Made by a program: the position numbers and the translations under genes. A model generated the notes under the pieces. The model ran no database searches. It was not told the origin of the DNA and saw only the letters and a program-made list of their open reading frames with translations. A stretch of DNA of 64,000 nt, from NCBI GenBank assembly GCA_965204785.1, contig OZ242015.1, positions 2,263,032 through 2,327,031 on the forward strand. Reading direction: 5' to 3'. Every line of letters starts with the position of its first letter. Position 1 is the first letter of the stretch. This document shows, piece after piece, positions 1-26,554 of this stretch. Source of the stretch: Alphaproteobacteria bacterium. Lineage in GTDB: Bacteria; Pseudomonadota; Alphaproteobacteria; SP197.

Positions 1-3000
1 CCGATTGAGGCAGGTTGGTCACGGTCGGAATGACATCGCCCAGGAAGCCTGAAAGGTTGTCGGTAAATGCGATATCGAAGAAATCGCCGACGCCTGGGCC
101 GGCAATCGTGAACACCATCGTCTGACTGTCGCCCGCTGAAATCGGGTTCGTCCCGAAAGACTTGGTGAACGACAACGGCGCGGCGGGGGTGACGGTCAAC
201 GTGTCGGTTGCCGGGCCGGAATTGCCTGCGTCCGACGTCAAATCGCCGCTGACGTTCGTAGCGGTCGAGGTACCTGTGACCTGGACCGTGACCGCGCAGG
301 CCGCACCGGTCGCGACGGTGCCCCCGCTCAGCGACACCGTCCCGCCGCCCGCCGGGGCCGACACCGTGCCGCCGCAGGTGGTTGACGCATCGGGGGCCCC
401 GGCCACGACCATGCCGTCCGGGAAATCATCGGTGAAGGCCAGCCCGCCAACATCGATCAGGTTCGCCGCATTGTCGATCGTGAAGGTCAGTGTCGAGACC
501 CCGCCAGGATCGACCGTGTCGGGCGAGAACGCCTTGGCGAAGCCCGGTGCCTCGGCCGCAGTGACCGTCAGCGTGGCCTCGGCCGCGCTCGCCGTGGCGA
601 TGCTCGACGTCAGGTCGACTGCCGGGCCGGTCAGCGTTCCCGCCCCGATGGCGCGTACCGTCACCCGGATCTCGCACGTGGCGCCCGCGGCAAGCGTGCC
701 GTCGGAGAAGCCGAGCGTCGTGGCGCCCGCAACCGGGCTGAACGTGCCGCCGCAGCCGTTGACGGCGCCGGGGGTGTCGGCGACGGAAACGCCCGAGGGC
801 AGGGAATCGTCAAACGCCATCTCCGTCATCGCGATGGCGTTGGCCCCGTTGTCGACCGTGAAGACGACCTGCGTTTCCCCGCCCTGCCTGATGGTGTCGG
901 GCGAAAAGACCCTGGCGAAGCCCGGCGCAACCACCGCATCGACCGTCAGCGTCGCTTCGGCGGGTGCGCTGGCGCCCAGCGACGAGGTCACGCTCTGCGT
1001 GGCGTTGGGATAGCTTCCCGCAACCGTGGAGGTCACGTCCACGGCGATCGTGCAGCTCGCACCCGCGTCCAGCCCACCGCCGGTGAAGGTGATGGTGTTG
1101 CCGCCGCCCTGCGCCGTCAGCGTGCCCCCGGTGCAGGTCGTCGACGCATCGGGATCGGAGGCCAGCACGACATCTTCGGGCAGCGTGTCCGACAAGGCAA
1201 CCGACATCGCCGCGAGCGCCGCGCCGTTGTCAAGGCCATAGCTCAGCCGCGAGACCCCGCCCTGATCGACCGTGGCAGGCGAAAACGACATCGAGACCGA
1301 CAGCGGCGCATCGTTCACCGTCAGCGTCGCCGCGGCGCCAGGCGCGTCATCGGGCAGGTCCGACGTCAGGACGCCCGACAGGTTGGACAGCGTGCCGACC
1401 TGCAGAGCCTGCACGTCGACGGAGAGTGTGCAGCTCGCGCCGTCACCGACACTGCCGCCGCTGAAGGCGAGCGAGGTCGCCGACGACACAGGCGCAAACG
1501 TGCCGCCGCAACTGTTGTCCGCGTTGGGCGTCGCGGCCACGACCATGCCGTCCGGGAAGGCATCGTCGAAGGCGAGCGAGCCCACCGCGATGGCGTTCGC
1601 CGCATTGTCGATCGTGAAGCTCAGCCGCGAGACCCCGCCAGGATCGACCGTCGGGGGCGAAAACGCCTTGGCGAAGCCCGGCGCACTGGCCGGCGTGACC
1701 GTCAGCGTCGCTTCGGCGGCGGTCGCCGTGGCGATGCTCGACGTCAGGGCAACCTGCGGGCCGATCAGCGTTCCCGCCTCGATGGCGCGCACCCTCACCC
1801 GGATCTCGCACGTGGCGCCCGCGGCAAGCACGCCGCCGGAAAAGCCGAGCGTCGTGGCGCCCGCAACCGGGCTGAACGTACCGCCGCAGCCGTTGACGGC
1901 GCCGGGCGTGTCGGCAACCGAAACCCCCGAGGGCAGGGAATCGTCAAACGCCATCCCCGTCATCGCGATGGCGTTGGCGCCATTGTCGATCGTGAAGACG
2001 ACCTGCGTTTCTCCGCCCTGCTCGATGGTGTCGGGCGAAAAGACCCTGGCGAAGCCCGGCGCACCGGCCGGCGTGACCGTCAGCGTCGCTTCGGCGGCGG
2101 CGCTGGTGCCCAGCGACGAGATCACACTCTCGGTGTCGTTGGAATAGCTTCCCGCGACCGTGGAGGTCACGTCCACGGCGATCGTGCAGGCGGAGGAGGA
2201 AGAGAGTAAGCCAACCTCGCCGTCGTCCGAATAGGAGACTTCTCTGCCGCCCGCCACCGCCGCCAGCACGCCCCCGGTGCAGGTCGTCTGTGCATTGGGG
2301 GGATCGGCCACCACCACATCGGCGGGCAGCGTGTCGGACAGCAAAATCAACGACGCCCCGACCGCCGCTTCGTTGCGCAACTCATAGGTCAGCCTCGACA
2401 CACCACCAGCCCTGATCGCCGTCGGCTGGAACGACATCGAGACCGACAGCGGCGCCTCGTTCACCATCAGCGTCGCCGAGGCGCCCGGCGTGGCAACGGG
2501 CAGATCCGAGGCCAGGTCGCCCGACGTGCCGGTCAACGCGATGGCCCGCGAAGCCCGCACGTCGACGGAGAGCGTACAGCTTTGCCCGGCCCCGACGAGG
2601 CCGCCGGTGAAGGCAAGCGAGGTCGCCGACGCGGCGGGGGCGAAGGTGCCGCCGCAGGTGGTCGACGCATTGGGGGGCACGGCCACGGCCAGGTCCTCCG
2701 GGAAGTCATCGTCGAAGGCCAGCCCACCCACATCGATCAGGTTCGCCGTATTGTCGATCGTGAAGGTCAGCCGCGAGATCCCGCCCGGATCGACCGTGGC
2801 AGGCGAGAAGACCTTGGCGAAGCCCAGGGCCGCCGCCGCATCGACCGTCAGCGTCGCCTCGGCGGGTGCGCTGGCGCCCAGCGACGAGGTCACGCTGTCC
2901 GTGGCGTTGGGATAGCTTCCCGCGACCGCGGAGGTCACGTCCACGGCGATCGTGCAGCCCGCACCCGCGCCAAGCGACCCGCCGGTGAAGGTGATGGTGT

Positions 3001-9000: not shown

Positions 9001-12000
9001 AGGTCACGTCGACGGCGATCGTACAGATGATCTCCAGGTCAAAAGACCCGACCGACCAGGAGATGTCGCTGCCGCCGGCCGGGGCCGTCAGCGTGCCGCC
9101 TAAGGGGCAGCCCGACTGCTGCTGCGCATTGGGGGGATCGGCCACCACGACACCGGCGGGCAACGTATCGGACAGCGAAACCGACTCCGCCGGGAGCAGC
9201 GCCCCCTGGTTGCGCAGCACATAGGTCAACCTGGAGACCCCGCCCTGATCGATCGTCGACGGCGAGAACGACACCGAGACCAACAGTGGCGTCTCGTCCA
9301 CCGTCAGCGTCGCCGAGGCGCCAGGCGCGTCATCGGGCAGATCGGACGTCAGGACGCCCGACGTGCCGGTCAACGCGCCGGCCTGCAGCGCCTCCACGTC
9401 AACGGAGAGCGTACAGCTTTGCCCGGCCGCGACGCTGCCGCCGGAGAAAGCGAGCGAGGTCGCCGACGCGGCGGGCGCGAAGGTGCCGCCGCAGGTGGTC
9501 GCCGCATTGGGCGTCGGGGCCACGGCCAGGCCGGCCGGGAAGGCGTCGTCGAAAGCCAGCCCGCCCACATCGATCAGGTTCGCCGTATTGTCGATCGTGT
9601 AGGTCAGCGTCGAGACAACGCCCGGATTGGTCCTGTCCGGCGAAAACGCCTTGGCGAAGCCCGGCGCCTCGGCCGCATCGACCGTCAGCGTCGCTTCGAC
9701 GGCGGCGCTGGCGCCCAGCGACGAGGTCACGCTGTCCGTGGCGTTCCGGTAACTTCCGGGGACCGCGGAGGTCACGTCGACGGCGACCGTGCAGTTGTCG
9801 CCGTTTGCCTCAATGATCACGGCCGACCAGGAGACTTCGCCGCCGCCGGCCGGGGCCGTCAGCGGGCCAGTAGAGCCGTCAACGCATCTCGACTGCGCAT
9901 TGGGCTCCGAGGCCAGCACGACACCGGTGGGCAACGTGTCGGACAGCGAAACCGACGTCGCCGGGAACGGCGCCTCGTTGCGCAGCACATAGGTCAGCCG
10001 CGAGACCCCGCCCTGATCGATCGTCGACGGCGAGAACGACATCGAGACCGACAGCGGCGTCCCGTTCACCGTCAGCGTCGCCGAGGCGCCAGGCGCGTCA
10101 TCGGGCAGGTCCGAGGTCAGGTCGCCCGACGTGCCGGTCAGCGTGCCGACCTGCAGCGCCTGCACGTCCACGGCGATCGTACAGCTTTGCCCGGCCGCGA
10201 CGCTGCCGCCGGAGAAGACGAGCGAGGTCGCCGCCTCGGCGGGGGCGAAGGTGCCGCCGCAGGTGGTCGCCGCATTGGGCGTCGGGGCCACGGCCAGGCC
10301 GGCCGGGAAGGCATCGGTGAAAGCCAGCCCGCCCACATCGATCAGGTTCGCCGTATTGTCGATCGTGTAGGTCAGCGTCGAGACAACGCCCGGATTGATC
10401 CTGTCCGGCGAAAACGCCTTGGCGAAGCCCGGCGCCTCGGCCGCATCGACCGTCAGCGTCGCTTCGACGGGCGGGCTGGCGCCCAGCGACGAGGTCACGC
10501 TGTCCGTGGCGTTCCGGTAACTTCCGGGGACCGCGGAGGTCACGTCGACGGCGACCGTGCAGTTGTCGCCGTTTGCCTCAATGATCACGGCCGACCAGGA
10601 GACTTCGCCGCCGCCGGCCGGGGCCGTCAGCGGGCCAGTAGAGCCGTCAACGCATCTCGACTGCGCATTGGGCTCCGAGGCCAGCACGACACCGGTGGGC
10701 AACGTGTCGGACAGCGAAACCGACGTCGCCGGGAACGGCGCCTCGTTGCGCAGCACATAGGTCAGGCGCGAGACCCCGCCCTGATCGATCGTCGACGGCG
10801 AGAACGACATCGAGACCGACAGCGGCGTCTCGTTCACCGTCAGCGTCGCCGAGGCGCCAGGCGCGTCATCGGGCAGGTCCGAGGTCAGGTCGCCCGACGT
10901 GCCGGTCAGCGTGCCGACCTGCAGCGCCTGCACGTCCACGGCGATCGTACAGCTTTGCCCGGCCGCGACGCTGCCGCCGGAGAAGACGAGCGAGGTCGCC
11001 GCCTCGGCGGGGGCGAAGGTGCCGCCGCAGGTGGTCGCCGCATTGGGCGTCGGGGCCACGGCCAGGCCGGCCGGGAAGGCATCGGTGAAGGCGAGCGAAC
11101 CCACCGCGATGGCGTTGGCCGTATTGTCGATCGTGTAGGTCAACGTCGAGATCTCGCCCGGATTGATCCTGTCCGGCGAAAACGCCTTGGCGAAGCCCGG
11201 TGCCGCCGCCGCGGGCGGAACGACCGTCAGCGTCGCCGAGGCGCCCGGTGTGGCATCCGGCAGGTCCGAGGTCAGGTCGCCCGACGTGCCGGTCAGCGTG
11301 CCGGCCTGCAGCGCCTGCACGTCCAGGGCGATCGTACAGCTTTGCCCGACCGCGACGCTGCCGCCGGAGAAGGCGAGCGAGGTCGCCGCCCCGGCGGTCG
11401 CGAAGGCCACAAAGCAGTCGGTCACCGCATTGGGCGTCGAGGCCACGGCCAGGCCGGCCGGGAAGTCATCGGTGAAGGCGAGCGAACCCACCGCGATGCC
11501 GTTGGCCGTATTGTCGATCGTGTAGGTCAGCCTGGAAATCCCGCCCGTCTCGACCGTGGCCGGGGAGAAGGCCTTGGAAAAGCCCAATGGCTCGGGCTCG
11601 ATCGGAGTGCCCCGCGAAACGACCGTCAGGGTCGCCGAGGCGCGCGGCCCGGTACCCGGCAGGTCCGAGGTCAGTTCGCCCGACGTGCCGGCCCGCATGC
11701 CGGTCGTCGAGGACAGCACGTCAAGGGAAATCGTGCAGGTCCCGCCGGCCGCAACGGTTCCCCCTGAAAACGTCACATTGCCTGCACCGAATCGATTCCT
11801 CGCTTGCACGGATGGCGTCCCGCAACCCGACGACAACACATTCGGGAGCGCGTTCACCCTCACGGGGAGGAAGTCCGTAAAGGCGAGCGAACCCACCGCG
11901 ATGCCGTTGGCCGTATTGTCGATCGTGTAGGTCAACGTCGAGACCCTGCCCACCTCGATCGTGGCCGGGGAGTAGGCCTTGGAAAAGCCCAACGTTTGGG

Positions 12001-12079: not shown

Positions 12080-12425
12080 GGCGCACTTATACATGGCGCA
12101 CTTCAAGGATTGACGGTTGGCCCGATGGCAGGGCGGTCTTGCCTGTGCCGGGATCGCATGGATTATGCGAGGGGGAGGAGGAGAGGCAAACCATTGTCAA
12201 AGGCTTATCGCTTCAGGTTCCGGCCTTCAGGTTCCGGCGAGACCGAACATCTTGTATGTGAGTGGCGATGAAGAGCGCTACGCTCTCGTCTTCGACCGCG
12301 AATGCCTCAGCACCGTTCATACGCCTGTCGTCCCCACGTCCACTGTGCGATCCCCTCGCTTCTTTCATTCCTTGCATAGCGGCCTGCTCATGTAAAGGGC
12401 ATCGGCTCATGCAAAGGGCAGAGGA
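11961..12425. repeat. Copy A of a ~465-bp dispersed duplication: first ~40 codons plus 5' leader/promoter region of the giant genes (partner 21367..21830)
   Basis: Identity starts at gtggccggggagtaggcc (11961 / 21367) and continues past the start codon. Mirror ORFs 12117..12395 and 21522..21800 differ at 1 of 92 residues. There is one 1-nt indel, at 12089-12091. Confidence 0.9.
12195..12237 (-). promoter_or_regulatory. Candidate regulator site: tandem direct repeat CCGGAACCTGAAG x2 (14-bp period) 10 nt upstream of a TTGACA hexamer, ~120 nt upstream of the giant-gene ATG
   Basis: Plus strand reads cttcaggttccgg at 12211-12223 and 12225-12237, and tgtcaa at 12195-12200. The arrangement is duplicated exactly at 21600-21642. 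No convincing -10 box at 17-bp spacing. Confidence 0.3.
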
Positions 12426-12432
12426 TCGGTTT

Positions 12433-12644
12433 CCCGCCTCCCAACGCGGAATACACCCTCACCGACGAGCCCGCCCCGGGAGCAGCCAGGCGCACCACCG
12501 ACGGCCAGATCATCAGGTTCTGCCTGGCCTGACGTCCCGGCCCGGCCGCGCCGTTCCGCGCTTCCCCGAACGTCTCCCGATTTAGCGCCGTTTCACATCC
12601 CGCGAACGGGTGTTTCCGGGGGCGTTCCGCGCCCCTGAAACGGG
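12433..12644. repeat. Copy A of a second duplicated block (partner 23000..23210). It holds the last ~33 codons of the 22593..23099 ORF (12433..12532, gene remnant) and the left half of the GAAAC-rich spacer.
   Basis: cccgcctcccaacgcggaatacaccctcaccgacgagcccgcc...ctggcctga matches 23000-23099 with 1-2 mismatches. Similarity continues to cccctgaaacggg (12644 / 23210) and then stops. Confidence 0.85.
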
Positions 12645-12655
12645 CCGCGATATTT

Positions 12656-12901
12656 CCGGTCGACGACTGCGCCTGGAAGTTCAACGAGCGCGGAAACCCG
12701 GGGGGTTTCGACAAGGCAACGGGTGATCGCGCCTTCACCCGGCAGCCGCACGGCAGCCAGTTCACGGTGATCCGCCCGGTACCGGGCTCGGCGCGGGCAT
12801 TCTCTGTCGACCGGACCGTGCCCTTGGTCGAACAGCGGCACGTCCCGCGTCCCGCGCTCGACGATCCGGGCTGGATCCCACTCGACCGGTCAAATACGTA
12901 A
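12656..12901 (+). pseudogene. Start-less 81-codon C-terminal fragment of an unidentified protein
   Basis: Open frame PVDDCAWKFNERGNPGGFDKATGDRAFTRQPHGSQFTVIRPVPGSARAFSVDRTVPLVEQRHVPRPALDDPGWIPLDRSNT, then TAA at 12899-12901. The composition is protein-like rather than Arg/Gly-rich shadow. There is no start codon and no family recognised. Confidence 0.3.
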
Positions 12902-12980
12902 TTCGTAATTCTCCAAAAAGGGCCGTTTCGTGCGATTGCTGCCGGTCGTGACTATCCGCGATCTAACGAAGGGCCGCGAT

Positions 12981-15900
12981 CTAATGAAGGGGTATACTGA
13001 GTTCAAACGTCAGGCCCCAGCTTTCGAAATCGGACTGCCCGATCCCGTCATGGGTCGCTCCGAACGAGAGCCGCGTTCCATCGTCGGTCGTCATGCCGAC
13101 ACCGCTCTTGAGGCGCGCGCGCCACCCCCCGACTTCGCCGTTCGTATCGGACAGCGTCACGCCCGTCGTATCGTCGGTATTGTATATGGCGTCGGCCGTC
13201 AGGTAGAACGAATAGTTCTGTCCTTCCGGACCTGTGAACTCTCTGGTGAATGTGGGGCCGACCTTGAACTGGCCAAGCCGTACGGTCTGGCTGGGGATGG
13301 TCGCCCCGACGCTGTCGACGTAACCCTTCTGTGTTTCCTCCAGATAAGACAGGCTCGTATGCGGCCGGATCGTCCAGTTGTCGTACTGAACCTCGCCGGT
13401 CAAGCTCGCCATGGCAAGCCAGCGCCCGGTCTGGAAGCTGTCGGTATAGGTTTTGAACGGGCTGATCTCGTTATACGACCTGCCAATTGCAAAACGACCG
13501 TCGAAATACAGGTTCGGGGTCAGCCGCGCCGTCGTATAGGGCCCGAACATGTAACCGGAGCCACTGACCTTGCCGGTACTGGTCGATTCTTCCATCCTGT
13601 CGAAGGACCCGAGCGCACCGACCAGGACATCCGGCGTCAGCAGGTAATCCACCCCGGCATAGGCGATGGTAAAGTCACCACGCCCATCCGCACTGTCACC
13701 GAAATCCCTGTATTGCGCTTCGAACCAGGCATCGAAGCGGTTGTTTTCGACGTAAGTGACTTCACCTTCCGCTCCAAGGGTCAGTAGTTCGGCGCTCGCA
13801 GCCGCATGGCTCACCTGCGGCAAGCTGGTCGAGAACGCGTAATCGCCGTCGCCGCCTTTCACTGTGAACGGCAGGAGCGCCTGGATGTCCCAATTTGAGA
13901 GCCGCACCGAGCGGGTCTGGTCCAGACCGCGTTTCAGGCGACCGAACCGGCGGCCTGGATTGGGTTCACTCGACAGGATCAGGTCCGCCCGGCGGGTCAG
14001 GAAGCTGTTGATCGTCTCTACCGTGCGCTGAACCGAGGATTGCGCCGTGAGCGTACAGGTGACGTCTTCGGAGGCATCGAGCGTCACGGACACCGTCGCC
14101 GCAGAAACATCGGCGGTGCTGTCCGTGTCATCGCAGGCGATGGCCGTCAGCGCGACGCCCGTGGGCGCCGCCACCGCTACCGAATGGCTGCCCGTTGCGA
14201 CCGGGAGCACGCCTGTGGACCCGGTCCCTCCATTGACTTCAAGAGAGGTGGTCAAAGCCGGTTCGGCAGACGAGAATCTGAAGATGCCGTCGGTGTCCGA
14301 CGCCACGTTGAAGGTGACCTGTCCCCGCCCCGGCGCACCGGCCTGCGCGACCGTCAGCGGCGCACCGGCCTGCGTGACCGTCAGCGTCGCCTCGGCGGGC
14401 GCGCTGGCGCCCAGCGACGAGGTCACGCTCTGCGTGGCGTTGGGATAGCTTCCCGCGACCGCGGAGGTCACGTCGACGGCGACCGTGCAGCTCGCACCCG
14501 CGTCCAGCGCACCGCCGGTGAAGGTGAAGGTGTTGCCGCCCGCCTGCGCCATCAGCGTGCCACCGGTGATGGTGAAGGTGTTGCCGCCGCCCTGCGCCGT
14601 CAGCGTGCCACCGCTGCAGGTCGTCTGCGCATTGGGGGGATCGGCCAGCACGACACCGGCGGGCAGCGTGTCCGACAGCGAAACCGACCTCGCCGCGACC
14701 GCCGCGCCGTTGTCAAGGCCATAGCTCAGCCGCGAGACCCCGCCCTGATCGACCGTGGCAGGCGAAAACGCCAGCGAGACCGACAGCGGCGCCTCGTTCA
14801 CCGTCAGCGTCGCCGAGACGCCCGACACGGCAACGGACAGGTCCGAACTCAGGTCGCCCGACGTGCCGGTCAGCGTACCGACCTGCAGAGCCTGCACGTC
14901 AACGGAGAGCGTACAGGTGCCGCCGGCCGCGACGAGGCCGCCGGAGAAGGCAAGCGAGGTCGCCGAGGCGGCGGGGGCGAAGGCGCCCCCGCAGCCGTTG
15001 TCCGCGTTGGGCTCGGGCGCCACGGCCAGACCCTCCGGGAAGGCATCGTCGAAGGCGAGCGAGCCCACGGCGATGGCGTTGGCCGCATTGTCGATCGTGA
15101 AGCTCAGCGTCGAGACCCCGCCAGGATCGACCGTGGCCGGCGAGAAGACCTTGGCGAAGCCCGGCGCCACCGCCGTATCGACCGTCAGCGTCGCCGCGGC
15201 GAAGCCCGCCGCCGCATCGACCGTCAGCGTCGCCTCGGCGGGCGCGCTCGCGCCCAGCGACGAAGTCACGCTCTGCGTGTCGTTGGGATAGCTTCCCGCA
15301 GCCGCGGAGGTCACGTCCACGGCGATCGTGCAACTCGCACCCGCCACAATCAACCCGCCGGACCAGGAGACCTCGCCGCCGCCCGCAGCCGCCGTCAGCC
15401 TGCCGCCGGGACAGGTCCTCCGCACATTGGGGGGATCGGCCAGCACGACACCGGCGGGCAGCGTGTCCGACAGCGAAACCGACCTCGCCGCGACCGCCAC
15501 CCCGTTGTCCAGGCCATAGGTCAGCCGCGAGACCCCGCCCTGATCGATCGTCGACGGAGAGAACTCCATCGAGACCGACAGCGGCGCCTCGTTCACCGTC
15601 AGCGTCGCCGAAGCGCCCGACACGGCAACGGACAGGTCCGAACTCAGGTTGCCCGACGTGCCGGTCAGCGTGCCGGACCGTGTGGGCTGCACGTCAAGGG
15701 AAATCGTGCAGGTTCCGCCGGCCGCAATGGTTCCCCTTGAGAAAAGCACCCTGCCTCTGGCGGATTGATTACTCGCTTGCAGGCGTGGATTCCCGCAACC
15801 CACCAGCGACGTATTCGCGGGCACGGCCACGAGCAAGCCGGACGGGAGGAAGTCTCTGAAGGCGAGCGAACCCACGGCGATGTCGTTGGCCGTATTGTCG

Positions 15901-18900
15901 ATCGTGTAGGTCAGCCTGGAAACCCCGCCCGGCGCGACCGTGGCCGGCGAAAACGCCTTGGCGAAGCCCGGCGCCGCCACCGCATCGACCGTCAGCGTCG
16001 CTTCGGCGAGCGCGCTCGCGCCCAGCGTCGAGGTCACGCTCTGCGTGTCGTTGCGGTAACTTCCCGCAGCCGCGGAGGTCACGTCCACGGCGATCGTGCA
16101 ACTCGCACCCGCCACAATCAACCCGCCGGACCAGGAGACCTCGCCGCCGCCCGCAGCCGCCGTCAGCCTGCCGCCGGCGCAGGTCCTCCGCACATTGGGG
16201 GGATCGGCCAGCACGACACCGGCGGGCAGCGTGTCCGACAGCGAAACCGACCTCGCATCGACCGCCGCCCCGTTGTCCAGGCCATAGGTCAGCCGCGAGA
16301 CCCCGCCCTGATCGATCGTCGACGGAGAGAACTCCATCGAGACCGACAGCGGCGCATCGTTCACCATCAGCGTCGCCGAAGCGCCCGACACGGCAACGGA
16401 CAGGTCCGAACTCAGGTTGCCCGACGTGCCGGTCAGCGGGCCGGACCGCGTGGGCCGCACGTCAAGGGAAATCGTGCAGGTTCCGCCGGCCGCAATGGTT
16501 CCCCTTGAGAAAAGCACCCTGCCTCTGGCGGATTGATTGCTCGTTTGCAGGCGTGGATTCCCGCAACCCACCAGCGACGTATTCGCGGGCACGGCCACGA
16601 GCAAGCCGGACGGGAGGAAGTCTCTGAAGGCGAGCGAACCCACGGCGATGTCGTTGGCCGTATTGTCGATCGTGTAGGTCAGCCTGGAAAGCCCGCCCGG
16701 CGCGACCGTGGCCGGCGAAAACGCCTTGGCGAAGCCCGGCGCCTCGGCCGGCGTGACCGTGGCCGCATCGACCGTCAGCGTCGCTTCGGCGGGCGTGCTG
16801 GCGCCCAGCGACGAGGTCACGCTCTGCGTGGCGTTGCGGTAACTTCCCGCAGCCGCGGAGGTCACGTCCACGGCGATCGTGCAACTCGCACCCGCCACAA
16901 TCAACCCGCCGGACCAGGAGACCTCGCCGCCGCCCGCAGCCGCCGTCAGCCTGCCGCCGGCGCAGGTCCTCCGCACATTGGGGGGATCGGCCAGCACGAC
17001 ACCGGCGGGCAGCGTGTCCGACAGCGAAACCGACCTCGCCGCGACCGACGCCCCGTTGTCCAGGCCATAGGTCAGCCGCGAGACCCCGCCCTGATCGATC
17101 GTCGACGGCGAGAACGACATCGAGACCGACAGCGGCGCATCGTTCACCGTCAGCGTCGCCGAAGCGCCCGACACGGCAACGGACAGGTCCGAACTCAGGT
17201 TGCCCGACGTGCCGGTCAGCGGGCCGGACCGCGTGGGCTGCACGTCAAGGGAAATCGTGCAGGTGCCGCCGGCCGCAATGGTTCCCCTTGATAAAAGCAC
17301 CCTGCCTCTGGCGGATTGATTGCTCGTTTGCAGGCGTGGATTCCCGCAACCCACCAGCGACGTATTCGCGGGCACGGCCACGAGCAAGCCGGACGGGAGG
17401 AAGTCTCTGAAGGCGAGCGAACCCACCTCGATGGTGTTGGCCGTATTGTCGATCGTGTAGGTCAGTCTGGAAACCCCGCCCGGATCGACCGTGGCCGGCG
17501 AAAACGCCTTGGCGAAGCCCAGTGCCGCCGCCGCATCGACCGTCAGCGTCGCTTCGGCGGGCGCGCTCGCGCCCAGCGACGAGGTCACGCTCTGCGTGTC
17601 GTTGCGGTAACTTCCCGCAGCCGCGGAGGTCACGTCCACGGCGATCGTGCAGCTCGCACCCGCCACAATCAACCCGCCGGACCAGGAGACCTCGCCGCCG
17701 CCCGCAGCCGCCGTCAGCCTGCCGCCGGCGCAGGTCCTCTGCACATTGGGGGGATCGGCCAGCACGACATCTCCGGGCAGCGTGTCCGACAGCGAAACCG
17801 ACCTCGCCGCGACCGCCGCCCCGTTGTCCAGGCCATAGGTCAGCCGCGAGACCCCGCCCTGATCGATCGTCGACGGCGAGAACGACATCGAGACCGACAG
17901 CGGCGCATCGTTCACCGTCAGCGTCGCCGAAGCGCCCGACACGGCAACGGACAGGTCCGAACTCAGGTTGCCCGACGTGCCGGTCAGCGTGCCGGACCGT
18001 GTGGGCTGCACGTCAAGGGAAATCGTGCAGGTTCCGCCGGCCGCAATGGTTCCCCTTGAGAAAAGCACCCTGCCTCTGGCGGATTGATTACTCGCTTGCA
18101 GGCGTGGATTCCCGCAACCCACCAGCGACGTATTCGCGGGCACGGCCACGAGCAAGCTGGACGGGAGGAAGTCTCTGAAAGCGAGCGAACCCACCTCGAT
18201 GTCGTTGGCCGTATTGTCGATCGTGTAGGTCAGTCTGGAAACCCCGCCCGGATCGACCGTGGCCGGCGAAAACGCCTTGGCGAAGCCCAGGGCCGCCGCC
18301 GCATCGACCGTCAGCGTCGCTTCGGCGGGCGCGCTCGCGCCCAGCGTCGAGGTCACGCTCTGCGTGTCGTTGCGGTAACTTCCCGCAGCCGCGGAGGTCA
18401 CGTCCACGGCGATCGTGCAGCTCGCACCCGCCACAATCAACCCGCCGGACCAGGAGACCTCGCCGCCGCCCGCAGCCGCCGTCAGCCTGCCGCCGGCGCA
18501 GGTCCTCTGCACATTGGGGGGATCGGCCAGCACGACATCTCCGGGCAGCGTGTCCGACAGCGAAACAGACCTCGCATCGACCGCCGCCCCGTTGTCCAGG
18601 CCATAGCTCAGCCGCGAGACCCCGCCCTGATCGATCGTCGACGGCGAGAACGACATCGAGACCGACAGCGGCGCATCGTTCACCGTCAGCGTCGCCGAAG
18701 CGCCCGACACGGCAACGGACAGGTCCGAACTCAGGTTGCCCGACGTGCCGGTCAGCGTGCCGGACCGCGTGGGCCGCACGTCAACGGAAATCGTGCAGGT
18801 CCCGCCGGCCGCAACGGTTCCCCTTGAGAAAAGCACCCTGCCTCTGACGGATTGATTATTACTCGTTCGCAGGCGTGGATTCCCGCAACCCACCAGCGAC

Positions 18901-21485
18901 GTATTCGCGGGCACGGCCACGAGCAAGCCGAACGGGAGGAAGTCTCTGAAGGCGAGCGAACCCACCTCGATGTCGTTCGCCGAATTGTCGATCGTGTAGG
19001 TCAGCCTGGAAACCCCGCCCGGATCGACCGTGGCCGGCGAAAACGCCTTGGCGAAGCCCGGCGCCTCGGCCGGCGCAGTGACCGTCAGCGTCGCTTCGGC
19101 GGGCGTGCTGGCGCCCAGCGTCGAGGTCACGCTCTGCGTGTCGTTGCGGTAACTTCCCGCAGCCGCGGAGGTCACGTCCACGGCGATCGTGCAGCTCGCA
19201 CCCGCCACAATCAACCCGCCGGACCAGGAGACCTCGCCGCCGCCCGCAGCCGCCGTCAGCCTGCCGCCGGGGCAGGTCTTCCGCGCATTGGGGGGATCGG
19301 CCAGCACGACACCGGCGGGCAGCGTGTCCGACAGCGAAACCGACCTCGCCTCGACCGCCGCCCCGTTGCCCAGGCCATAGGTCAGCCGCGAGACCCCGCC
19401 AGGATCGATCGTCGACGGAGAGAACTCCATCGAGACCGACAGCGGCGCATCGTTCACCGTCAGCGTCGCCGAAGCGCCCGACGCGGCAACGGGCAGGTCC
19501 GAACTCAGGCCGCCCGACGTGCCGGTCAGCGTGCCGGACCGCGTGGGCTGCACGTCAAGGGAAATCGTGCAGGTTCCGCCGGCCGCAATGGTTCCCCTTG
19601 AGAAAAGCACCCTGCCTCTGGCGGATTGATTACTCGTTTGCAGGCGTGGATTCCCGCAACCCACCAGCGACGTATTCGCGGGCACGGCCACGAGCAAGCC
19701 GGACGGGAGGAAGTCTCTGAAGGCGAGCGAACCCACCTCGATGGTGTTGGCCGTATTGTCGATCGTGTAGGTCAGCCTGGAAACCCCGCCCGGATCGACC
19801 GTGGCAGGCGAAAAAGCCTTGGCGAAGCCCGGCGCCTCGGCCGGCGCAGTGACCGTCAGCGTCGCTTCGTTGGGCGTGCTGACGCCCAGCGACGAGGTCA
19901 CGCTCACCCTGTCATTCCGGTAACTTCCGGCGGCCGCGGAGGTCACGTCGACGGCGATCGTGCAGGTGTCGTTTACCTCAACCAGCCCGCCGGACCAGGA
20001 GACTTCGCCGCCGCCGGCCGGGGCCCTCAGCGTGCCGCCAAAGCAGCCCGACTGCGCATTGGGGGGATCGGCCACCACGACACCGGCGGGCAACGTATCG
20101 GACAGCAAAACCGACGTCGCCGGGATCAACGCCCGGTTGCGCAGCAGATATCTCAACCTGGAGACCCCGCCCTGATCGATCGTCGACGGCGAGAACGTCA
20201 TCAGGACCGACAGCGGTGTCTCGTCCACCGTCAGCGTCGCCGAGGCGCCAGGCGCGTCATCGGGCAGATCCGACGTCAGGACGCCCGACGTGCCGGTCAA
20301 CGTGCCGGCCCGCAGCGCCTCCACGTCAACGGAGAGCGTACAGCTTTGCCCGGCCGCGACGCTGCCGCCGGAGAAGACGAGCGAGGTCGCCGCCTCGGCG
20401 GGCGCGAAGGTGCCGCCGCAGGTCGTCGACGCATTGGGCGTCGGGGCCACGGCCAGGCCGGCCGGGAAGTCATCGGTGAAGGCGAGCCCGCCCACATCGA
20501 TCAGGTTCGCCGTATTGTCGATCGTGTAGGTCAGCGTCGAGACAACGCCCGGATCGACCGTGGCCGGGGAGAAGACCTTGGAAAAGACCAACGTCTCGGG
20601 CTCGGGCGCAGTGCCCCGCACGACCGTCAGGGTCGCCGAGGCGCCCGGCGTGGCAACGGGCAGGTCCGAGGTCAGTTCGCGCGACGTGCCGGTCAGCGTG
20701 CCGGTCAGCGAGGGCCGCACGTCAACGGAAATCGTGCAGGTCCCGCCGGCCGCAACGGTTCCCCCTGAAAACGTCACCCTGCCTGTACCGGATGAATTCC
20801 TCGTTTGCACGAATCCAGCTTCGCAACCCACCACCGGCCCGGAGGAGGCCACGGTCACGCCGGCCGGGAGGAAGTCCATAAAGGCGAGCGAACCCACCGC
20901 GATGGCGTTCGCCACGTTGTCGATCGTGTAGGTCAACGTCGAGACCTCGTTCACCTCGACCGTGGCCGGGGAGTAGGCCTTGGAAAAGACCAACGTCTCG
21001 GGCTCGATCGGAGTGCCCGGCGGAACGACCGTCAGGGTCGCCGAGGCGCCCGGCGTGGCAACGGGCAGGTCCGAGGTCAGTTCGCCCGACGTGTCGGTCA
21101 GCGTGCCGGTCAGCGAGGGCCGCACGACAACGGAAATCGTGCAGGTCCCGCCGGCCGCAACGGTTCCCCCTGAAAACGTCACACTGCCTGTACCGAATTG
21201 ATTCCTCGTTCGCACGAATCCAGCTTCGCAACCCACCGCCGGCCCGGAGGAGGTCACAGTCACGCCGGCCGGGAGGGAGTCGACAAAGGCGAGCGAACCC
21301 ACGGCAATGGCGTTGGCCGTATTGTCGATCTTGTAGGTCAGCGTCGAGGTCCCGCCCGTCTCGACCGTGGCCGGGGAGTAGGCCTTGGAAAAGCCCAACG
21401 TTTGGGCCGCGACCGGCACGGCCTGCAATATGGCGAAGCCCGCCAGGAGACAGACTATGGCGAGTGATCTGGCAAAAAACCGCAT
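12981..21485 (-). CDS. Giant (2834 aa) autotransporter-like adhesin: signal peptide, ~18 DUF11-type Ig-like modules, prealbumin-like spacer, C-terminal ~300-aa beta-barrel domain
   Basis: Uninterrupted ORF in the track (12981..21605). The ATG at 21485 gives MRFFARSLAIVCLLAGFAILQAVPVAAQ. Modules repeat FSPATVDPGGVSRLTYTIDN...LPxG...C...GGTCTIxxDV. The C-terminus (INSFLTRRADLILSSEPNPGRRFGRL, then alternating-hydrophobic strands to GLTFELSIPLH) resembles an autotransporter linker and barrel. Confidence 0.9.
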   Translation of the reverse strand: MRFFARSLAIVCLLAGFAILQAVPVAAQTLGFSKAYSPATVETGGTSTLTYKIDNTANAIAVGSLAFVDSLPAGVTVTSSGPAVGCEAGFVRTRNQFGTGSVTFSGGTVAAGGTCTISVVVRPSLTGTLTDTSGELTSDLPVATPGASATLTVVPPGTPIEPETLVFSKAYSPATVEVNEVSTLTYTIDNVANAIAVGSLAFMDFLPAGVTVASSGPVVGCEAGFVQTRNSSGTGRVTFSGGTVAAGGTCTISVDVRPSLTGTLTGTSRELTSDLPVATPGASATLTVVRGTAPEPETLVFSKVFSPATVDPGVVSTLTYTIDNTANLIDVGGLAFTDDFPAGLAVAPTPNASTTCGGTFAPAEAATSLVFSGGSVAAGQSCTLSVDVEALRAGTLTGTSGVLTSDLPDDAPGASATLTVDETPLSVLMTFSPSTIDQGGVSRLRYLLRNRALIPATSVLLSDTLPAGVVVADPPNAQSGCFGGTLRAPAGGGEVSWSGGLVEVNDTCTIAVDVTSAAAGSYRNDRVSVTSSLGVSTPNEATLTVTAPAEAPGFAKAFSPATVDPGGVSRLTYTIDNTANTIEVGSLAFRDFLPSGLLVAVPANTSLVGCGNPRLQTSNQSARGRVLFSRGTIAAGGTCTISLDVQPTRSGTLTGTSGGLSSDLPVAASGASATLTVNDAPLSVSMEFSPSTIDPGGVSRLTYGLGNGAAVEARSVSLSDTLPAGVVLADPPNARKTCPGGRLTAAAGGGEVSWSGGLIVAGASCTIAVDVTSAAAGSYRNDTQSVTSTLGASTPAEATLTVTAPAEAPGFAKAFSPATVDPGGVSRLTYTIDNSANDIEVGSLAFRDFLPFGLLVAVPANTSLVGCGNPRLRTSNNQSVRGRVLFSRGTVAAGGTCTISVDVRPTRSGTLTGTSGNLSSDLSVAVSGASATLTVNDAPLSVSMSFSPSTIDQGGVSRLSYGLDNGAAVDARSVSLSDTLPGDVVLADPPNVQRTCAGGRLTAAAGGGEVSWSGGLIVAGASCTIAVDVTSAAAGSYRNDTQSVTSTLGASAPAEATLTVDAAAALGFAKAFSPATVDPGGVSRLTYTIDNTANDIEVGSLAFRDFLPSSLLVAVPANTSLVGCGNPRLQASNQSARGRVLFSRGTIAAGGTCTISLDVQPTRSGTLTGTSGNLSSDLSVAVSGASATLTVNDAPLSVSMSFSPSTIDQGGVSRLTYGLDNGAAVAARSVSLSDTLPGDVVLADPPNVQRTCAGGRLTAAAGGGEVSWSGGLIVAGASCTIAVDVTSAAAGSYRNDTQSVTSSLGASAPAEATLTVDAAAALGFAKAFSPATVDPGGVSRLTYTIDNTANTIEVGSLAFRDFLPSGLLVAVPANTSLVGCGNPRLQTSNQSARGRVLLSRGTIAAGGTCTISLDVQPTRSGPLTGTSGNLSSDLSVAVSGASATLTVNDAPLSVSMSFSPSTIDQGGVSRLTYGLDNGASVAARSVSLSDTLPAGVVLADPPNVRRTCAGGRLTAAAGGGEVSWSGGLIVAGASCTIAVDVTSAAAGSYRNATQSVTSSLGASTPAEATLTVDAATVTPAEAPGFAKAFSPATVAPGGLSRLTYTIDNTANDIAVGSLAFRDFLPSGLLVAVPANTSLVGCGNPRLQTSNQSARGRVLFSRGTIAAGGTCTISLDVRPTRSGPLTGTSGNLSSDLSVAVSGASATLMVNDAPLSVSMEFSPSTIDQGGVSRLTYGLDNGAAVDARSVSLSDTLPAGVVLADPPNVRRTCAGGRLTAAAGGGEVSWSGGLIVAGASCTIAVDVTSAAAGSYRNDTQSVTSTLGASALAEATLTVDAVAAPGFAKAFSPATVAPGGVSRLTYTIDNTANDIAVGSLAFRDFLPSGLLVAVPANTSLVGCGNPRLQASNQSARGRVLFSRGTIAAGGTCTISLDVQPTRSGTLTGTSGNLSSDLSVAVSGASATLTVNEAPLSVSMEFSPSTIDQGGVSRLTYGLDNGVAVAARSVSLSDTLPAGVVLADPPNVRRTCPGGRLTAAAGGGEVSWSGGLIVAGASCTIAVDVTSAAAGSYPNDTQSVTSSLGASAPAEATLTVDAAAGFAAATLTVDTAVAPGFAKVFSPATVDPGGVSTLSFTIDNAANAIAVGSLAFDDAFPEGLAVAPEPNADNGCGGAFAPAASATSLAFSGGLVAAGGTCTLSVDVQALQVGTLTGTSGDLSSDLSVAVSGVSATLTVNEAPLSVSLAFSPATVDQGGVSRLSYGLDNGAAVAARSVSLSDTLPAGVVLADPPNAQTTCSGGTLTAQGGGNTFTITGGTLMAQAGGNTFTFTGGALDAGASCTVAVDVTSAVAGSYPNATQSVTSSLGASAPAEATLTVTQAGAPLTVAQAGAPGRGQVTFNVASDTDGIFRFSSAEPALTTSLEVNGGTGSTGVLPVATGSHSVAVAAPTGVALTAIACDDTDSTADVSAATVSVTLDASEDVTCTLTAQSSVQRTVETINSFLTRRADLILSSEPNPGRRFGRLKRGLDQTRSVRLSNWDIQALLPFTVKGGDGDYAFSTSLPQVSHAAASAELLTLGAEGEVTYVENNRFDAWFEAQYRDFGDSADGRGDFTIAYAGVDYLLTPDVLVGALGSFDRMEESTSTGKVSGSGYMFGPYTTARLTPNLYFDGRFAIGRSYNEISPFKTYTDSFQTGRWLAMASLTGEVQYDNWTIRPHTSLSYLEETQKGYVDSVGATIPSQTVRLGQFKVGPTFTREFTGPEGQNYSFYLTADAIYNTDDTTGVTLSDTNGEVGGWRARLKSGVGMTTDDGTRLSFGATHDGIGQSDFESWGLTFELSIPLH
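15100..19850. repeat. Array of about six 768-bp (256-codon, two-module) tandem repeats inside giant gene 2; boundaries approximate
   Basis: Near-identical mirror ORFs start at 15328, 16096, 16879, 17647, 18415 and 19189 (spacings 768/783/768/768/774), and at 15765, 16533, 17316, 18084, 18852 and 19626. The protein repeats (A/P)GFAKAFSPATV...TLTVNDAPLSVSMxFSPSTIDQGGV...ATLTV six times. Confidence 0.9.
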
Positions 21486-21830
21486 GGCGCACTTAACATG
21501 GCGCACTTCAAGGATTGACGGTTGGCCCGATGGCAGGGCGGTCTTGCCTGTGCCGGGATCGCATGGATTATGCGAGGGGGAGGAGGAGAGGCAAACCATT
21601 GTCAAAGGCTTATCGCTTCAGGTTCCGGCCTTCAGGTTCCGGCGAGACCGAACATCTTGTATGTGAGTGGCGATGAAGAGCGCTACGCTCTCGTCTTCGG
21701 CCGCGAATGCCTCAGCACCGTTCATACGCCTGTCGTCCCCACGTCCACTGTGCGATCCCCTCGCTTCTTTCATTCCTTGCATAGCGGCCTGCTTATGTAA
21801 AGGGCATCGGATCATGCAAAGGGCATCGAC
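21367..21830. repeat. Copy B of the ~465-bp duplicated 5' end plus leader/promoter region (partner 11961..12425)
   Basis: See copy A. Offset is 9406 before and 9405 after the 1-nt indel. Confidence 0.9.
21600..21642 (-). promoter_or_regulatory. Second copy of the CCGGAACCTGAAG x2 direct repeat plus TTGACA hexamer upstream of giant gene 2
   Basis: cttcaggttccgg at 21616-21628 and 21630-21642; tgtcaa at 21600-21605. Confidence 0.3.
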
Positions 21831-21881
21831 TCATGAAACGGCAAGAATCGGTGTGAAAACAGCCACCTGTCCCGAGGGTAA

Positions 21882-22035
21882 GATGGTGCCAGCATCGCCG
21901 AGACGCAGCGGGCCTTGGGCTGGCAGGAACACAGCGTTCGTGGCTTCCTCTCCGGAACCGTCAAGAAGATGGCGGGCGTGATCCTCGTCTCCGGGAAAGG
22001 CGACACCGGCCCACGGCGCCATCGCATCGAAGCGG
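21882..22035 (+). pseudogene. DUF3489-family gene, C-terminal fragment only
   Basis: The frame opens after a TAA at 21879-21881 and reads DGASIAETQRALGWQEHSVRGFLSGTVKKMAGVILVSGKGDTGPRRHRIE. The (T)GWQxHSVRGFLSG core is the DUF3489 signature as I remember it. The N-terminal half is missing, at the edge of the duplicated block. Confidence 0.6.
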
Positions 22036-22059
22036 CCGGGCATGAGCGCCATGGCGAGG

Positions 22060-22591
<532 letters not shown>

Positions 22592-22592
22592 C

Positions 22593-23099: not shown

Positions 23100-23165
23100 C
23101 GTCCCGGCCCGGCCGCGCCGTTTCACACGCCGCGAACGTCTCCCGATTTAGCGCCGTTTCACACC

Positions 23166-23278
23166 CCGTGAACGGGTGTTTCCGGGGCCGTTCCGCGCCC
23201 CTGAAACGGGTCTCGATTTATCGCCGTTTTGCACCCCCGAAACGCCCGGAAATCGCCCCCGGAAACACCCGTTCACGG
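23166..23278. repeat. Perfect 22-bp inverted repeat (ccgtgaacgggtgtttccgggg / ccccggaaacacccgttcacgg) with a 69-nt spacer, inside a non-coding stretch rich in GAAAC/GTTTC motifs
   Basis: Arms at 23166-23187 and 23257-23278, checked base by base. Nearby motifs: ccgtttcacac (x2), ctgaaacggg, ccgaaacgcc, ggaaatcgcc, ggaaacgccc. Confidence 0.9.
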
Positions 23279-26380: not shown

Positions 26381-26554
26381 GGGGATCTCTCCACTATCGC
26401 AGGAACGTCGTTTATTGAACGAGCGTACAATAACCGGCAACGGGAGTGCAACCGCGCCGATTGCTGCTAAACCATACCGCGCCGACCCGGATCCATCCAA
26501 TGCCTGCAACGACTGAAACCCGCATACCCAGCCCGGAGGGCGCGTCCTAATCCC

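Follow-up and report, generated by a model that had tools for sequence, protein, structure and literature searches.

Two tandem giant genes at the edge of the window

The 64,000-base stretch of DNA analysed here (the window) begins with two co-oriented genes, designated A and B, which together fill about a third of it (21485/64000 bases), in agreement with a preliminary description of this DNA. The features recognised in and around both genes are listed in Table 1. The minus-strand ORF 12981..21605 comprises 2874 codons when counted from its first TTG, and the ATG at 21485 yields the 2834-aa gene A protein, which starts with MRFFARSLAIV. Read by eye, the N-terminus of this protein is a putative Sec signal peptide with a basic n-region, a hydrophobic core and a V-A-A site, and the N-termini of its homologues are comparable. 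Downstream, gene B specifies a protein identical to that of gene A across the first 40 residues, and its frame reaches the window edge after 4026 codons without a stop, as had been described. In this DNA of 70% G+C, the opposite strand also contains spurious ORFs as long as 871 aa. These are devoid of family matches and only a fifth as long as the real frame, which excludes a chance origin of the giant frames.

Table 1. Positions of genes A and B, of their parts and of the adjoining non-coding DNA in the window.
Feature	Position	Strand	Description and basis
Gene A	12981..21485	minus	2834 aa; probable complete type Va autotransporter; stop codon at 12981-12983 (ORF and translation, Pfam)
Gene A signal peptide	21405..21485	minus	Putative; aa 1-27, MRFFARSLAIVCLLAGFAILQAVPVAA then Q; identical to that of gene B
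Gene A passenger array	14376..21404	minus	aa 28-2370; 18 CnaA-like/Ig-like modules (module split and alignment, Pfam, DNA identity matrix)
Junction domain	14037..14327	minus	aa 2387-2483; membrane-proximal beta-sandwich, SpaA_4/prealbumin-like, 2 Cys
Linker	13737..14036	minus	aa 2484-2583; conserved helix TVETINSFLTRRADLILS, low-confidence stretch, second helix before the barrel
Outer-membrane beta-barrel	12984..13736	minus	aa 2584-2834; 12 strands (PF03797, TIGR01414, AF2, Foldseek)
Upstream of gene A ATG	21486..21825	minus	341 bp; duplicated putative promoter and leader (blastn)
A-B intergenic region	12080..12980	minus	Includes the copy of the upstream region that belongs to gene B
Upstream of gene B ATG	12080..12420	minus	341 bp; 98.8% identical to 21486-21825 (blastn)
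Gene B	2..12079	minus	4026 codons without a stop; runs off the left window edge (translation, Pfam, module split)
Gene B signal peptide	11999-12079	minus	Same as that of gene A
Gene B full modules	191-11998	minus	31 modules
Gene B divergent partial module	2-190	minus	At the window edge

The passenger modules and their fold

Cutting at the A-T-L-T-V motif, which was used to set module boundaries, divides gene A into 18 modules of 125-141 aa plus a 13-aa remnant, and gene B into 31 full modules and one partial module. The earlier description of gene A, a frame of 2834 aa with a signal peptide and about 18 modules, is borne out by the translation, the split and Pfam. The gene A modules mostly alternate between a K-type and an M-type, and a DNA identity matrix reveals six di-module units of 768 bp that are 94-97% identical to each other. 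The module alignment sets the N-terminal modules A1-A2 and B1 apart as a subtype of their own.

Both DUF7933 (PF25564) and DUF11 (PF01345) score above the Pfam gathering score in the window genes. DUF7933 stretches (E = 0) number 18 in gene A and 31 in gene B, and DUF11 matches reach 1e-41 (142 bits) and 5e-77 (256 bits), respectively. The modules had been called DUF11/Ig-like: the Ig-like part holds, and DUF11 does match, but DUF7933 fits better. This family dates from 2025, when it was derived from predicted isopeptide domains; it is CnaA-like and related to DUF11/CLIPPER (PMC12617251). The accompanying view that DUF11 is mostly Gram-positive or archaeal is contradicted by the wide distribution of DUF11/CLIPPER among Gram-negative bacteria (PMC12617251).

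An AF2 model of a two-module unit, a prediction that the preliminary description had proposed, is a CnaA-like/Ig-like beta-sandwich with a pLDDT of 96.5, and its Foldseek matches comprise integrin calf/thigh domains, Cna, the isopeptide domains of SspB/AspA/BspA and the Ig-like domains of PrgB. PDB 9IFR is absent from the top 50 Foldseek matches of this two-domain query, and a search of the module pair against PDB sequences returned nothing at E <= 10. Pfam gives no Pertactin, AIDA or PATR match in either translation, and neither Pfam nor NCBIfam detects a distinct adhesive tip or other non-stalk domain in either protein.

Cysteine pairs and the isopeptide triad

Every one of the 49 window modules contains two Cys, and both aligned columns are filled in 48 of them; the pair is likewise present in 580/583 modules of relatives. 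The mature gene A protein has 38 Cys in all, with the paired residues 26-43 positions apart. Type V passengers are generally Cys-poor, and any Cys that they have lie near each other (PMC8151025), a rule from which the conserved pair per module departs, as judged from the sequence. The pair probably forms a disulfide that clamps each module, and oxidation by DsbA in the periplasm, if it occurs, could hinder translocation of the gene A protein.

The columns of the isopeptide triad were assigned by the 35/95-residue spacing of the Pfam reference K973/D1008/N1068 (PMC12617251), and are further backed by the location of N105 in the penultimate strand of the AF2 model and by the prevalence of KDN in relatives. 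An intact Lys-Asp-Asn triad is found in 7/49 window modules, all in gene B (7/31, against 0/18 in gene A, where the states are KDG in nine modules, KDD in one and M/L-D-N in eight). Among relatives, KDN is the most frequent state and the triad is full in 286/583 modules. Judging from these residues, gene A probably lacks the isopeptide cross-link that typifies the domain family, and no more than seven modules of gene B are likely to have it.

The C-terminal anchor of gene A

The last 499 aa of gene A, used alone as the query, match PF03797 (Autotransporter) with E = 3e-16 and 60.4 bits (cut-off 26) over model positions 16-254/255, and the C-terminus also matches TIGR01414 (37.6 bits, cut-off 16). 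In the AF2 model of this fragment, 12 barrel strands are accompanied by helices, and each of the top 19 Foldseek matches of the modelled barrel is a type Va barrel, with TM values reaching 0.80; among them are EspP, BrkA, Hbp, EstA, AIDA-I, AaaA and NalP. The autotransporter barrel suspected in the C-terminal ~300 aa is therefore confirmed by family, strand number and structural matches.

Upstream of the barrel, the linker helices lie at fragment residues 149-170, 176-184 and 220-234, with pLDDT <50 across 187-246. The first and the last of these are the candidate pore helices, the last being located within the stretch of pLDDT <50, and helix TVETINSFLTRRADLILS has invariant residues in homologue alignment A2. 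The strands of the junction domain occupy fragment residues 52-148 (pLDDT about 90). This domain resembles PF24514 weakly (21.6 bits, under the 27.3 cut-off), and PF24514 is seen again in homologues.

The PF03797 match, the Ig-like modules and the minus-strand frame free of stops up to 12079, on which the preliminary description had staked its reading, were all found. Altogether, the evidence supports a tandem of giant repeat surface proteins, the upstream one being a complete autotransporter with an Ig-like, non-beta-helical passenger. The best explanation, with a probability of roughly 80%, is that gene A codes for a classical monomeric (type Va) autotransporter in which a fibre of 18 tandem CnaA-like/Ig-like modules replaces the beta-helix.

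Relatives and distribution

Searches with the barrel identified 77 genome loci. In about 45 of them the barrel is preceded by the same modules, and many of these loci encode the whole in a single uninterrupted ORF of 2000-3700 aa, signal peptide included. Among cluster representatives at 50% identity, 962 match the junction domain plus barrel at E <= 1e-30, the longest being 6821 aa. In sphingomonad relatives, PKD/cadherin passengers take the place of the DUF7933 modules. A signal peptide, DUF7933/DUF11 modules and a PF03797 barrel are found in one ORF in Roseovarius faecimaris pMME07001 (WP_157705197.1, 2051 aa), Ruegeria sp. TM1040 (WP_011536902.1, 1895 aa) and Primorskyibacter aestuariivivens (2563 aa), with barrels 29-58% identical to that of gene A. 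These three homologues are shorter than the window genes, and a tandem second gene is found only in relatives from metagenome-assembled genomes (MAGs; L004, L008). Named homologues bear automatic names only, such as "autotransporter domain-containing protein" or "choice-of-anchor D domain-containing protein."

As far as sequence can tell, the architecture is not unique to the window and recurs among many marine Alphaproteobacteria. The qualification of "unusual" given to it earlier thus holds relative to textbooks but does not survive a look at the databases, where it occurs in dozens of alphaproteobacterial genomes, some of them RefSeq-annotated. It represents a known type of secretion in a variant that is still uncharacterised.

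Comparison with known systems

Gene A shares with the type Va proteins EspP, BrkA, Hbp, AIDA-I, NalP and EstA the same order of signal peptide, passenger, helical linker and C-terminal 12-stranded PF03797 barrel. A beta-helical passenger with a C-terminal autochaperone is typical of type Va, though not obligatory, and EstA lacks it. Unlike these proteins in general, gene A has a passenger that is not a beta-helix and is without Pertactin/AIDA-type repeats or a classical autochaperone, whose position is occupied by the SpaA_4-like sandwich of the junction; it is a string of Cys-paired beta-sandwiches whose 38 Cys go against the Cys-poor rule (PMC8151025).

Intimin and invasin (type Ve) likewise show long Ig-like strings from a 12-stranded barrel, and the successive folding of their domains powers secretion (PMC6555100). 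In gene A, however, the order is reversed and the modules are CnaA-like (DUF7933) rather than of the Big/invasin type. Since its barrel is C-terminal and belongs to the PF03797 family, the string would come out C-terminal end first. Membership of type Ve is ruled out by the C-terminal position of the barrel and its PF03797 match, with no match to IAT_beta, and membership of type Vc by the position and family of the barrel.

Stalks made of CLIPPER/DUF11 and DUF7933 domains (PMC12617251; PDB 9IFR, Acinetobacter silvestris) belong to the same Pfam families as the window modules and have the same CnaA-like fold and tandem arrangement, together with frequent disulfides (PMC12617251) and the 35/95 triad spacing. 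On the other hand, the characterised CLIPPER example is anchored by an OmpA-like domain and gene A by an autotransporter barrel, and the window modules seldom keep the full triad (7/49, none of them in gene A, against 286/583 in relatives). Of the components that define fibrillar adhesins (PMC8286594), the stalk (18 and 31+ modules) and a PF03797 anchor, common in the fibrillar adhesins of Proteobacteria (PMC8286594), are present; a distinct adhesive domain was not found.

Proposed export and function

Under the type Va reading, Sec would export the protein and BAM would put the barrel into the outer membrane, after which the passenger would thread out from its C-terminus to its N-terminus, the junction domain folding first and the modules one after another. 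Stepwise folding of the modules could act as a ratchet, as for the Ig-like domains of intimin (type Ve), in the opposite direction. The product would be a barrel-anchored surface fibre of several tens of nm, by a rough estimate, with A1-A2 at its distal tip.

Such a fibre likely helps a marine or sediment alphaproteobacterium to adhere, to aggregate or to form biofilms. The same architecture could have a non-adhesive function, either as a protective or spacing coat (a shield against phages or grazers, an S-layer-like brush) or for self-aggregation only, a reading that is less likely and still deserves consideration: Pfam recognises no ligand-binding tip domain, the arrays combine great length and uniformity with rapid evolution (units 94-97% identical, module numbers differing from the orthologue), and the two co-oriented paralogues are of unequal length and have a common upstream region. 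However, repeats of this domain family build the stalks of fibrillar adhesins elsewhere (PMC12617251; PMC8286594), stalk domains can themselves adhere (PMC8286594), and the distinct N-terminal subtype of A1-A2 and B1 could serve as a binding tip.

Gene B and its probable end

Gene B is a tandem paralogue of gene A; the upstream region is duplicated in front of it and the signal peptide is shared. The "30-plus-bead" string that had been envisaged passing through a barrel fits gene B, with its 31 beads, and any barrel of this gene lies outside the window; gene A has 18 beads and a barrel. An exact 39-mer taken from the window edge has no match in the genome contigs searched. The last 140 aa of gene B, searched against a set of 5.8 billion proteins, returned only distant DUF7933 fragments (200-243 aa) and no protein longer than ~900 aa. 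An exhaustive search of the cluster representatives yielded homologue P0154 (4387 aa), which is 73% identical to the last 400 aa of gene B and 84% to the last 90 aa, the tail aligning with P0154 residues 1112-1198. P0154 shares this tail and continues for 3189 aa past it to a barrel 72% identical to that of gene A, so gene B probably has a barrel at its end too. Judging from this homologue, gene B most likely runs on for about 3000 aa past the window edge up to a barrel of its own. With the layout of P0154, its frame would pass through the divergent module, two or three classical DUF11 modules and some 20 further DUF7933 modules before reaching a SpaA_4-like domain and the PF03797 barrel.

It is unlikely that gene B is instead no autotransporter, being exported or anchored otherwise, without a terminal barrel, or a decaying duplicate. 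Other phyla do anchor DUF7933 strings differently, e.g., by IPTL-CTERM, the window has no gene B barrel, and the barrel search gave no second barrel protein on the 22.1-kb orthologous contig, 5.4 kb of which lie past the readable part. The absence from that contig is nevertheless explained by the 3189 aa to the barrel, which exceed its extent. Moreover, the signal peptide of gene B and the 341 bp ahead of its ATG are shared with the autotransporter gene A, its 4026 codons are intact, P0154 has its landmark module ahead of a barrel, and tandem pairs with two barrels are found in relatives (L008/L010, L004/L022). Gene B was also considered as a type 11 secretion cargo and dropped from that class, the sole paper tying "DUF11" to roseobacters being concerned with DUF1194.

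Upstream DNA, orthologous contig and module numbers

The first 1485 coding nt of genes A and B are just 82% identical, in contrast with the 98.8% of the upstream DNA. The A-B intergenic DNA has one sigma-70-like site (12189-12162) and is 94% identical to its counterpart on the orthologous contig (L002). Rfam gives no match anywhere in the window, nor when the conserved upstream region is scanned, which indicates that no known riboswitch or leader is present. The ORF at 22042-22992 (316 aa), in an extra segment upstream of gene A, is probably spurious, as it is Arg/Pro/Gly-rich and has no family match; overlapping ORFs have none either.

The orthologous contig is 97% identical to the window and readable only as far as gene B nt 10718; it differs from the window by whole-module indels and has frameshifts. 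These differences, together with the 94-97% identity of the six 768-bp units, raise the prospect, slightly less likely still than a barrel-less gene B, that the module counts partly reflect misassembly of near-identical repeats and that the true gene lengths differ. Yet both frames are unbroken through 8.5 and 12 kb, a repeat divergence of 3-6% is enough for placement by long reads, and the exact copy number is immaterial to the architecture.

Implications for autotransport

That the passenger stays behind, its disulfide-bonded modules folding in the periplasm and the barrel acting merely as an anchor, is highly improbable: the Cys spacing of 26-43 residues does exceed the presumed translocation tolerance of type V systems (PMC8151025), but a periplasmic passenger on a PF03797 barrel is without precedent, intimin exports a passenger domain with a DsbA-made disulfide (PMC8151025), and conservation of the layout across hundreds of proteins of up to 6821 aa speaks for a functioning export route.

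Reviews describe type Va passengers as beta-helical in most cases, cite EstA as the standard exception and assign Ig-like strings to inverse type Ve (PMC6555100); Ig-like type Va passengers are unmentioned in the autotransporter reviews and classification papers examined. The window genes and their family offer a natural and widespread counter-example to the beta-helix picture, and the family also breaks the rule of "few, closely spaced cysteines" (PMC8151025). The balance leans modestly toward a broader proposition, namely that an alphaproteobacterial type Va clade (~960 cluster representatives at 50% identity) routinely exports, from C-terminus to N-terminus, beta-sandwich strings of several thousand residues, disulfide-bonded and in many relatives probably isopeptide-bonded, up to 6821 aa and possibly ~11,000 aa in one MAG. 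If true, classical autotransport would require neither a beta-helix nor a Cys-poor passenger, folding of Ig domains could power type Va export as the mirror image of intimin/invasin, and the members of the clade would be unusually large among autotransporters.

The family lets the drivers and limits of passenger translocation be tested and, with KDN modules side by side with KDG/MDN modules, allows cross-linked and non-cross-linked versions to be compared within one stalk domain. It also provides candidate surface-attachment fibres of Roseobacter-group bacteria. Finally, a lesson for annotation arises from gene A: PF03797 is unreported when the whole 2834-aa protein is scanned and surfaces only with the C-terminal fragment as query.

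Architecture of the Tandem Pair

The preliminary description, which read this region as two tandem giant genes for Ig-like repeat surface proteins, one of them a complete autotransporter, proved to be a correct reading of a real feature, and the pair is a member of a widespread, uncharacterised variant of the type Va autotransporters. Genes A and B are separated by a spacer of 901 bp and code for proteins whose first 40 residues are identical. Their coding DNA has a G+C content of 67–71%, vs. 59–65% in the remainder of the window, and because of this composition the opposite strand contains spurious ORFs of up to 871 aa; family matches are found in the minus-strand frames only.

Features of the gene A/gene B region and of other genes in the window (window nucleotides unless stated; fragment, last 499 aa of gene A)
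Feature	Position	Strand	Remarks
Gene A	12981–21485	minus	intact 2834-codon frame, ATG start; protein begins MRFFARSLAIVCLLAGFAILQAVPVAAQ...
Gene B	12079–2	minus	4026 codons, stop-free, leaves window at left edge
Di-module units, A5–A16	15219–19850	minus	six tandem units of 768 bp; DNA identity 94–97%
Module remnant	gene A aa 2090–2102		13 aa, DAAAGFAAATLTV
Module A19	14376–14798 (gene A aa 2230–2370)	minus	internal 16-aa duplication (GGNTFTITGGTLMAQAGGNTFTFTGG)
Beta-sandwich	fragment residues 52–148		AF2 model
Helix	fragment residues 149–170		AF2 model; conserved TVETINSFLTRRADLILS
Poorly predicted stretch	fragment residues 187–246		AF2 model; another helix
Twelve long strands	fragment residues 249–498		AF2 model
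Shared upstream block, 341 bp	12080–12420 vs. 21486–21825		98.8% identical; 5′ of start codons
Shared upstream block, 227 bp	12425–12651 vs. 22992–23217		94% identical
Segment between blocks, 1166 bp	21826–22991		5′ of gene A; missing 5′ of gene B
Oxygenase gene, first	25238–26674	minus
Oxygenase gene, second	27837–29045	minus
Oxygenase gene, third	57981–59117	minus
LysR regulator gene	29144–30088	plus

Splitting at the recurring A-T-L-T-V motif divides gene A into 18 modules of 125–141 aa, besides a short module remnant, and gene B into 31 complete modules followed, at the edge of the window, by a divergent, incomplete one. Pfam likewise places 18 DUF7933 (PF25564) stretches in gene A and 31 in gene B (E = 0); this is the main match, and DUF11 (PF01345), the family originally proposed for the modules, is a secondary one in both genes, together with HYDIN/BatD-type Ig-like families. 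DUF7933 dates from 2025, when ten new families of CnaA-like domains predicted to form intramolecular isopeptides were set up; the same paper renamed DUF11 CLIPPER, solved its structure as PDB 9IFR, and reported it to be widespread in Gram-negative bacteria, besides its occurrence in Gram-positives and archaea (PMC12617251). A sequence search of a module pair against the PDB gave no match. The two-module unit B12–B13 was modeled by AlphaFold2 as two beta-sandwiches with a mean pLDDT of 96.5, and the model matched tandem Ig-like arrays in Foldseek, including integrin calf/thigh domains, the Staphylococcus aureus collagen adhesin Cna, the Ig-like domains of PrgB, and the isopeptide-containing C-terminal domains of SspB, AspA, and BspA.

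A Complete Autotransporter with an Unusual Passenger

Scanned as a separate fragment, the last 499 aa of gene A match the Autotransporter family PF03797 over model positions 16–254 of 255 (E = 3e-16, 60.4 bits), TIGR01414 above its cut-off, and, weakly, SpaA_4 (PF24514). PF03797 went unreported at E ≤ 0.01 when the full 2834-aa protein was submitted to hmmscan, as it did in the full-length scan of P0154, a 4387-aa homologue; giant repeat proteins can conceal their anchor domain from routine annotation. The AF2 model of the fragment (pLDDT 77.8, from a 23-sequence alignment) ends in twelve long strands preceded by a beta-sandwich, hereafter the junction domain, and each of its 19 best Foldseek matches is a type Va barrel (EspP, BrkA, Hbp, EstA, AIDA-I, AaaA, and NalP; highest TM, 0.80). 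On the strength of the family matches, the twelve-stranded model and these structural neighbors, gene A is a complete classical autotransporter.

Type Va passengers are usually beta-helical, with EstA as an exception, whereas Ig-like domain strings are characteristic of the inverse type Ve system, in which secretion is energised by sequential folding (PMC6555100). Gene A departs from the usual type Va design in that its passenger is a string of Ig-like beta-sandwiches instead of a beta-helix, and the autotransporter survey and classification papers examined are silent on type Va passengers of the Ig-like, PKD, or immunoglobulin-like kind. PF03797 is listed among the common fibrillar-adhesin anchors of Proteobacteria in a survey that leaves DUF11 unmentioned (PMC8286594). 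Since the literature search turned up no publication on autotransporters with DUF7933 or DUF11 modules, the family, present in databases under automatic names, is undescribed in the accessible literature; for the secretion field it is moderately interesting.

Distribution among Alphaproteobacteria

The architecture of gene A is not confined to the genome of the window. Among 185,579 species-representative genomes, 77 loci encode the barrel, nearly all in Alphaproteobacteria, and in about 45 of them the same modules lie directly upstream on the same strand, in many cases within one intact ORF of 2000–3700 aa with a signal peptide. Cultured genera with both modules and barrel include Primorskyibacter, Roseovarius, Thalassobius, Sulfitobacter, Tateyamaria, Thalassovita, Psychromarinibacter, and Thalassococcus. 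Pfam confirmed the combination of DUF7933, DUF11, and PF03797 in Primorskyibacter aestuariivivens, in Roseovarius faecimaris pMME07001 (WP_157705197.1, named “autotransporter domain-containing protein” in RefSeq), and in Ruegeria sp. TM1040 (WP_011536902.1). In Erythrobacter, Croceicoccus, Pontixanthobacter, and Kiloniella the barrels are more distant and the passengers are instead of the PKD, Big_9, and cadherin-like types, and the entire barrel clade seems specialised for beta-sandwich strings.

Extent of Gene B

An exhaustive search with the junction domain and barrel of gene A retrieved 962 cluster representatives at E ≤ 1e-30, among them giants (4387, 6821, 5007, and 4355 aa) that terminate in the barrel. 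The first of these, P0154, comes from the same metagenome and has a barrel 72% identical to that of gene A. Its residues 803–1198 are 73% identical to the last 400 aa of gene B, rising to 84% between residues 1112–1198 and the last 90 aa, the latter being the divergent module that serves as a landmark at the window edge. The 3189 aa of P0154 beyond this match consist of one divergent module and classical DUF11 modules, then about 20 DUF7933 modules, and finally the junction domain with the barrel. Tandem pairs also occur in relatives: in one (L008/L010) both genes end in a barrel, 12.9 kb apart, and in another (L004/L022), whose second gene begins MRFFIRSFVMACLLAGLAIF..., the next barrel is located 34.7 kb further downstream. 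From these comparisons it is highly probable that gene B runs approximately 3000 aa past the window and, like gene A, codes for an autotransporter. Such a continuation would explain why the 22-kb orthologous contig, compared with gene B up to nt 10718 of the gene, returned no second barrel.

The L004/L022 pair lies on MAG chromosome OZ241973.1, where a 2597-aa autotransporter precedes a second gene with a similar MRFF... signal peptide (L004 11880–21044, L022 2–11062). The latter has open ORFs at both visible ends (≥3060 and ≥3687 aa) and, if continuous across the intervening 14 kb, would code for some 11,000 aa. Some family members lie among insertion sequences. Transposase genes of the IS66, IS110, and IS1595 types stand on either side of P0154 (L084), whose N-terminus has apparently been lost, and at L001/L007 the L001 copy, shortened to 580 aa, adjoins rve-type transposases.

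Cysteines and the Isopeptide Triad

According to a review of folding control, type V proteins contain few cysteines, and these lie within a few residues of one another; it singles out the 18 Cys of the chlamydial Pmps as noteworthy (PMC8151025). Mature gene A protein has 38, including two in the junction domain and none in the barrel. All 49 window modules contain exactly two Cys, 26–43 residues apart, which occupy one and the same pair of alignment columns in 48 of them (the first Cys of B8 is shifted by two); the widest spacing, in A19, is due to its internal duplication. As 580/583 modules from related loci also have exactly two, a module disulfide would be a constant of the family.

Three further alignment columns can be equated with the Lys-Asp-Asn isopeptide triad: their spacing of 35 and 95 residues is that of the Pfam reference (K973, D1008, N1068), the modeled module places Lys in the first and Asn in the penultimate strand, and KDN is the commonest state in related loci (286/583, with MDN in 101/583). 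The full triad occurs in seven modules of gene B and in none of gene A, whose modules all appear to have lost the isopeptide. The remaining states are KDG (nine in gene A, seven in gene B), KDD (one and none), M/V/L-D-N (eight and 11), and RDG (none and six). Adjoining module types divide the triad residues between them: where one has K-D-G, its neighbor has M-D-N. An Asp at the “LTSD” column is present in 24/24 Lys-bearing modules and in none of the others, a perfect co-variation that could reflect a salt bridge or an alternative cross-link.

Array Growth and Duplication

The high DNA identity of the di-module units of gene A indicates their recent tandem expansion. Relative to gene B, a 97% identical metagenomic contig (L081) shows indels of about 772 and 390 nt, lengths that correspond to whole modules, and the arrays appear to change length by gain and loss of units. 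The tandem layout recurs on this orthologous contig (L002/L081, ENA sample ERZ25068762), its genes broken by long-read frameshifts.

The first 1485 coding bases of the two genes are 82% identical, and the nearly identical 341-bp blocks upstream suggest either gene conversion or a strongly constrained promoter/leader. The shared upstream block contains one sigma-70-like site, and the upstream region matched no Rfam family. The segment separating the two shared blocks has no evident terminal repeats; a 316-aa ORF within it has no family match and looks spurious.

Proposed Export and Function

After Sec export, the barrel would be inserted with the assistance of BAM and the passenger threaded out from its C-terminus to its N-terminus. 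The junction sandwich, at the autochaperone position, would fold first, and the modules would then fold singly in turn, serving as a ratchet. With ~4 nm assumed for each Ig-like domain, the gene A fibre would, by a rough estimate, be several tens of nm long and that of gene B well over 100 nm. Adhesion, aggregation, or biofilm formation is the likely role; because no separate adhesive domain was found in either protein, a coat or spacer is a possible alternative. Dedicated accessory factors were not found among the remaining genes of the 64-kb window, which are ordinary metabolic genes. They include three paralogous genes for Rieske/ring-hydroxylating oxygenase alpha-subunits, the second of which is divergent from a LysR regulator gene.
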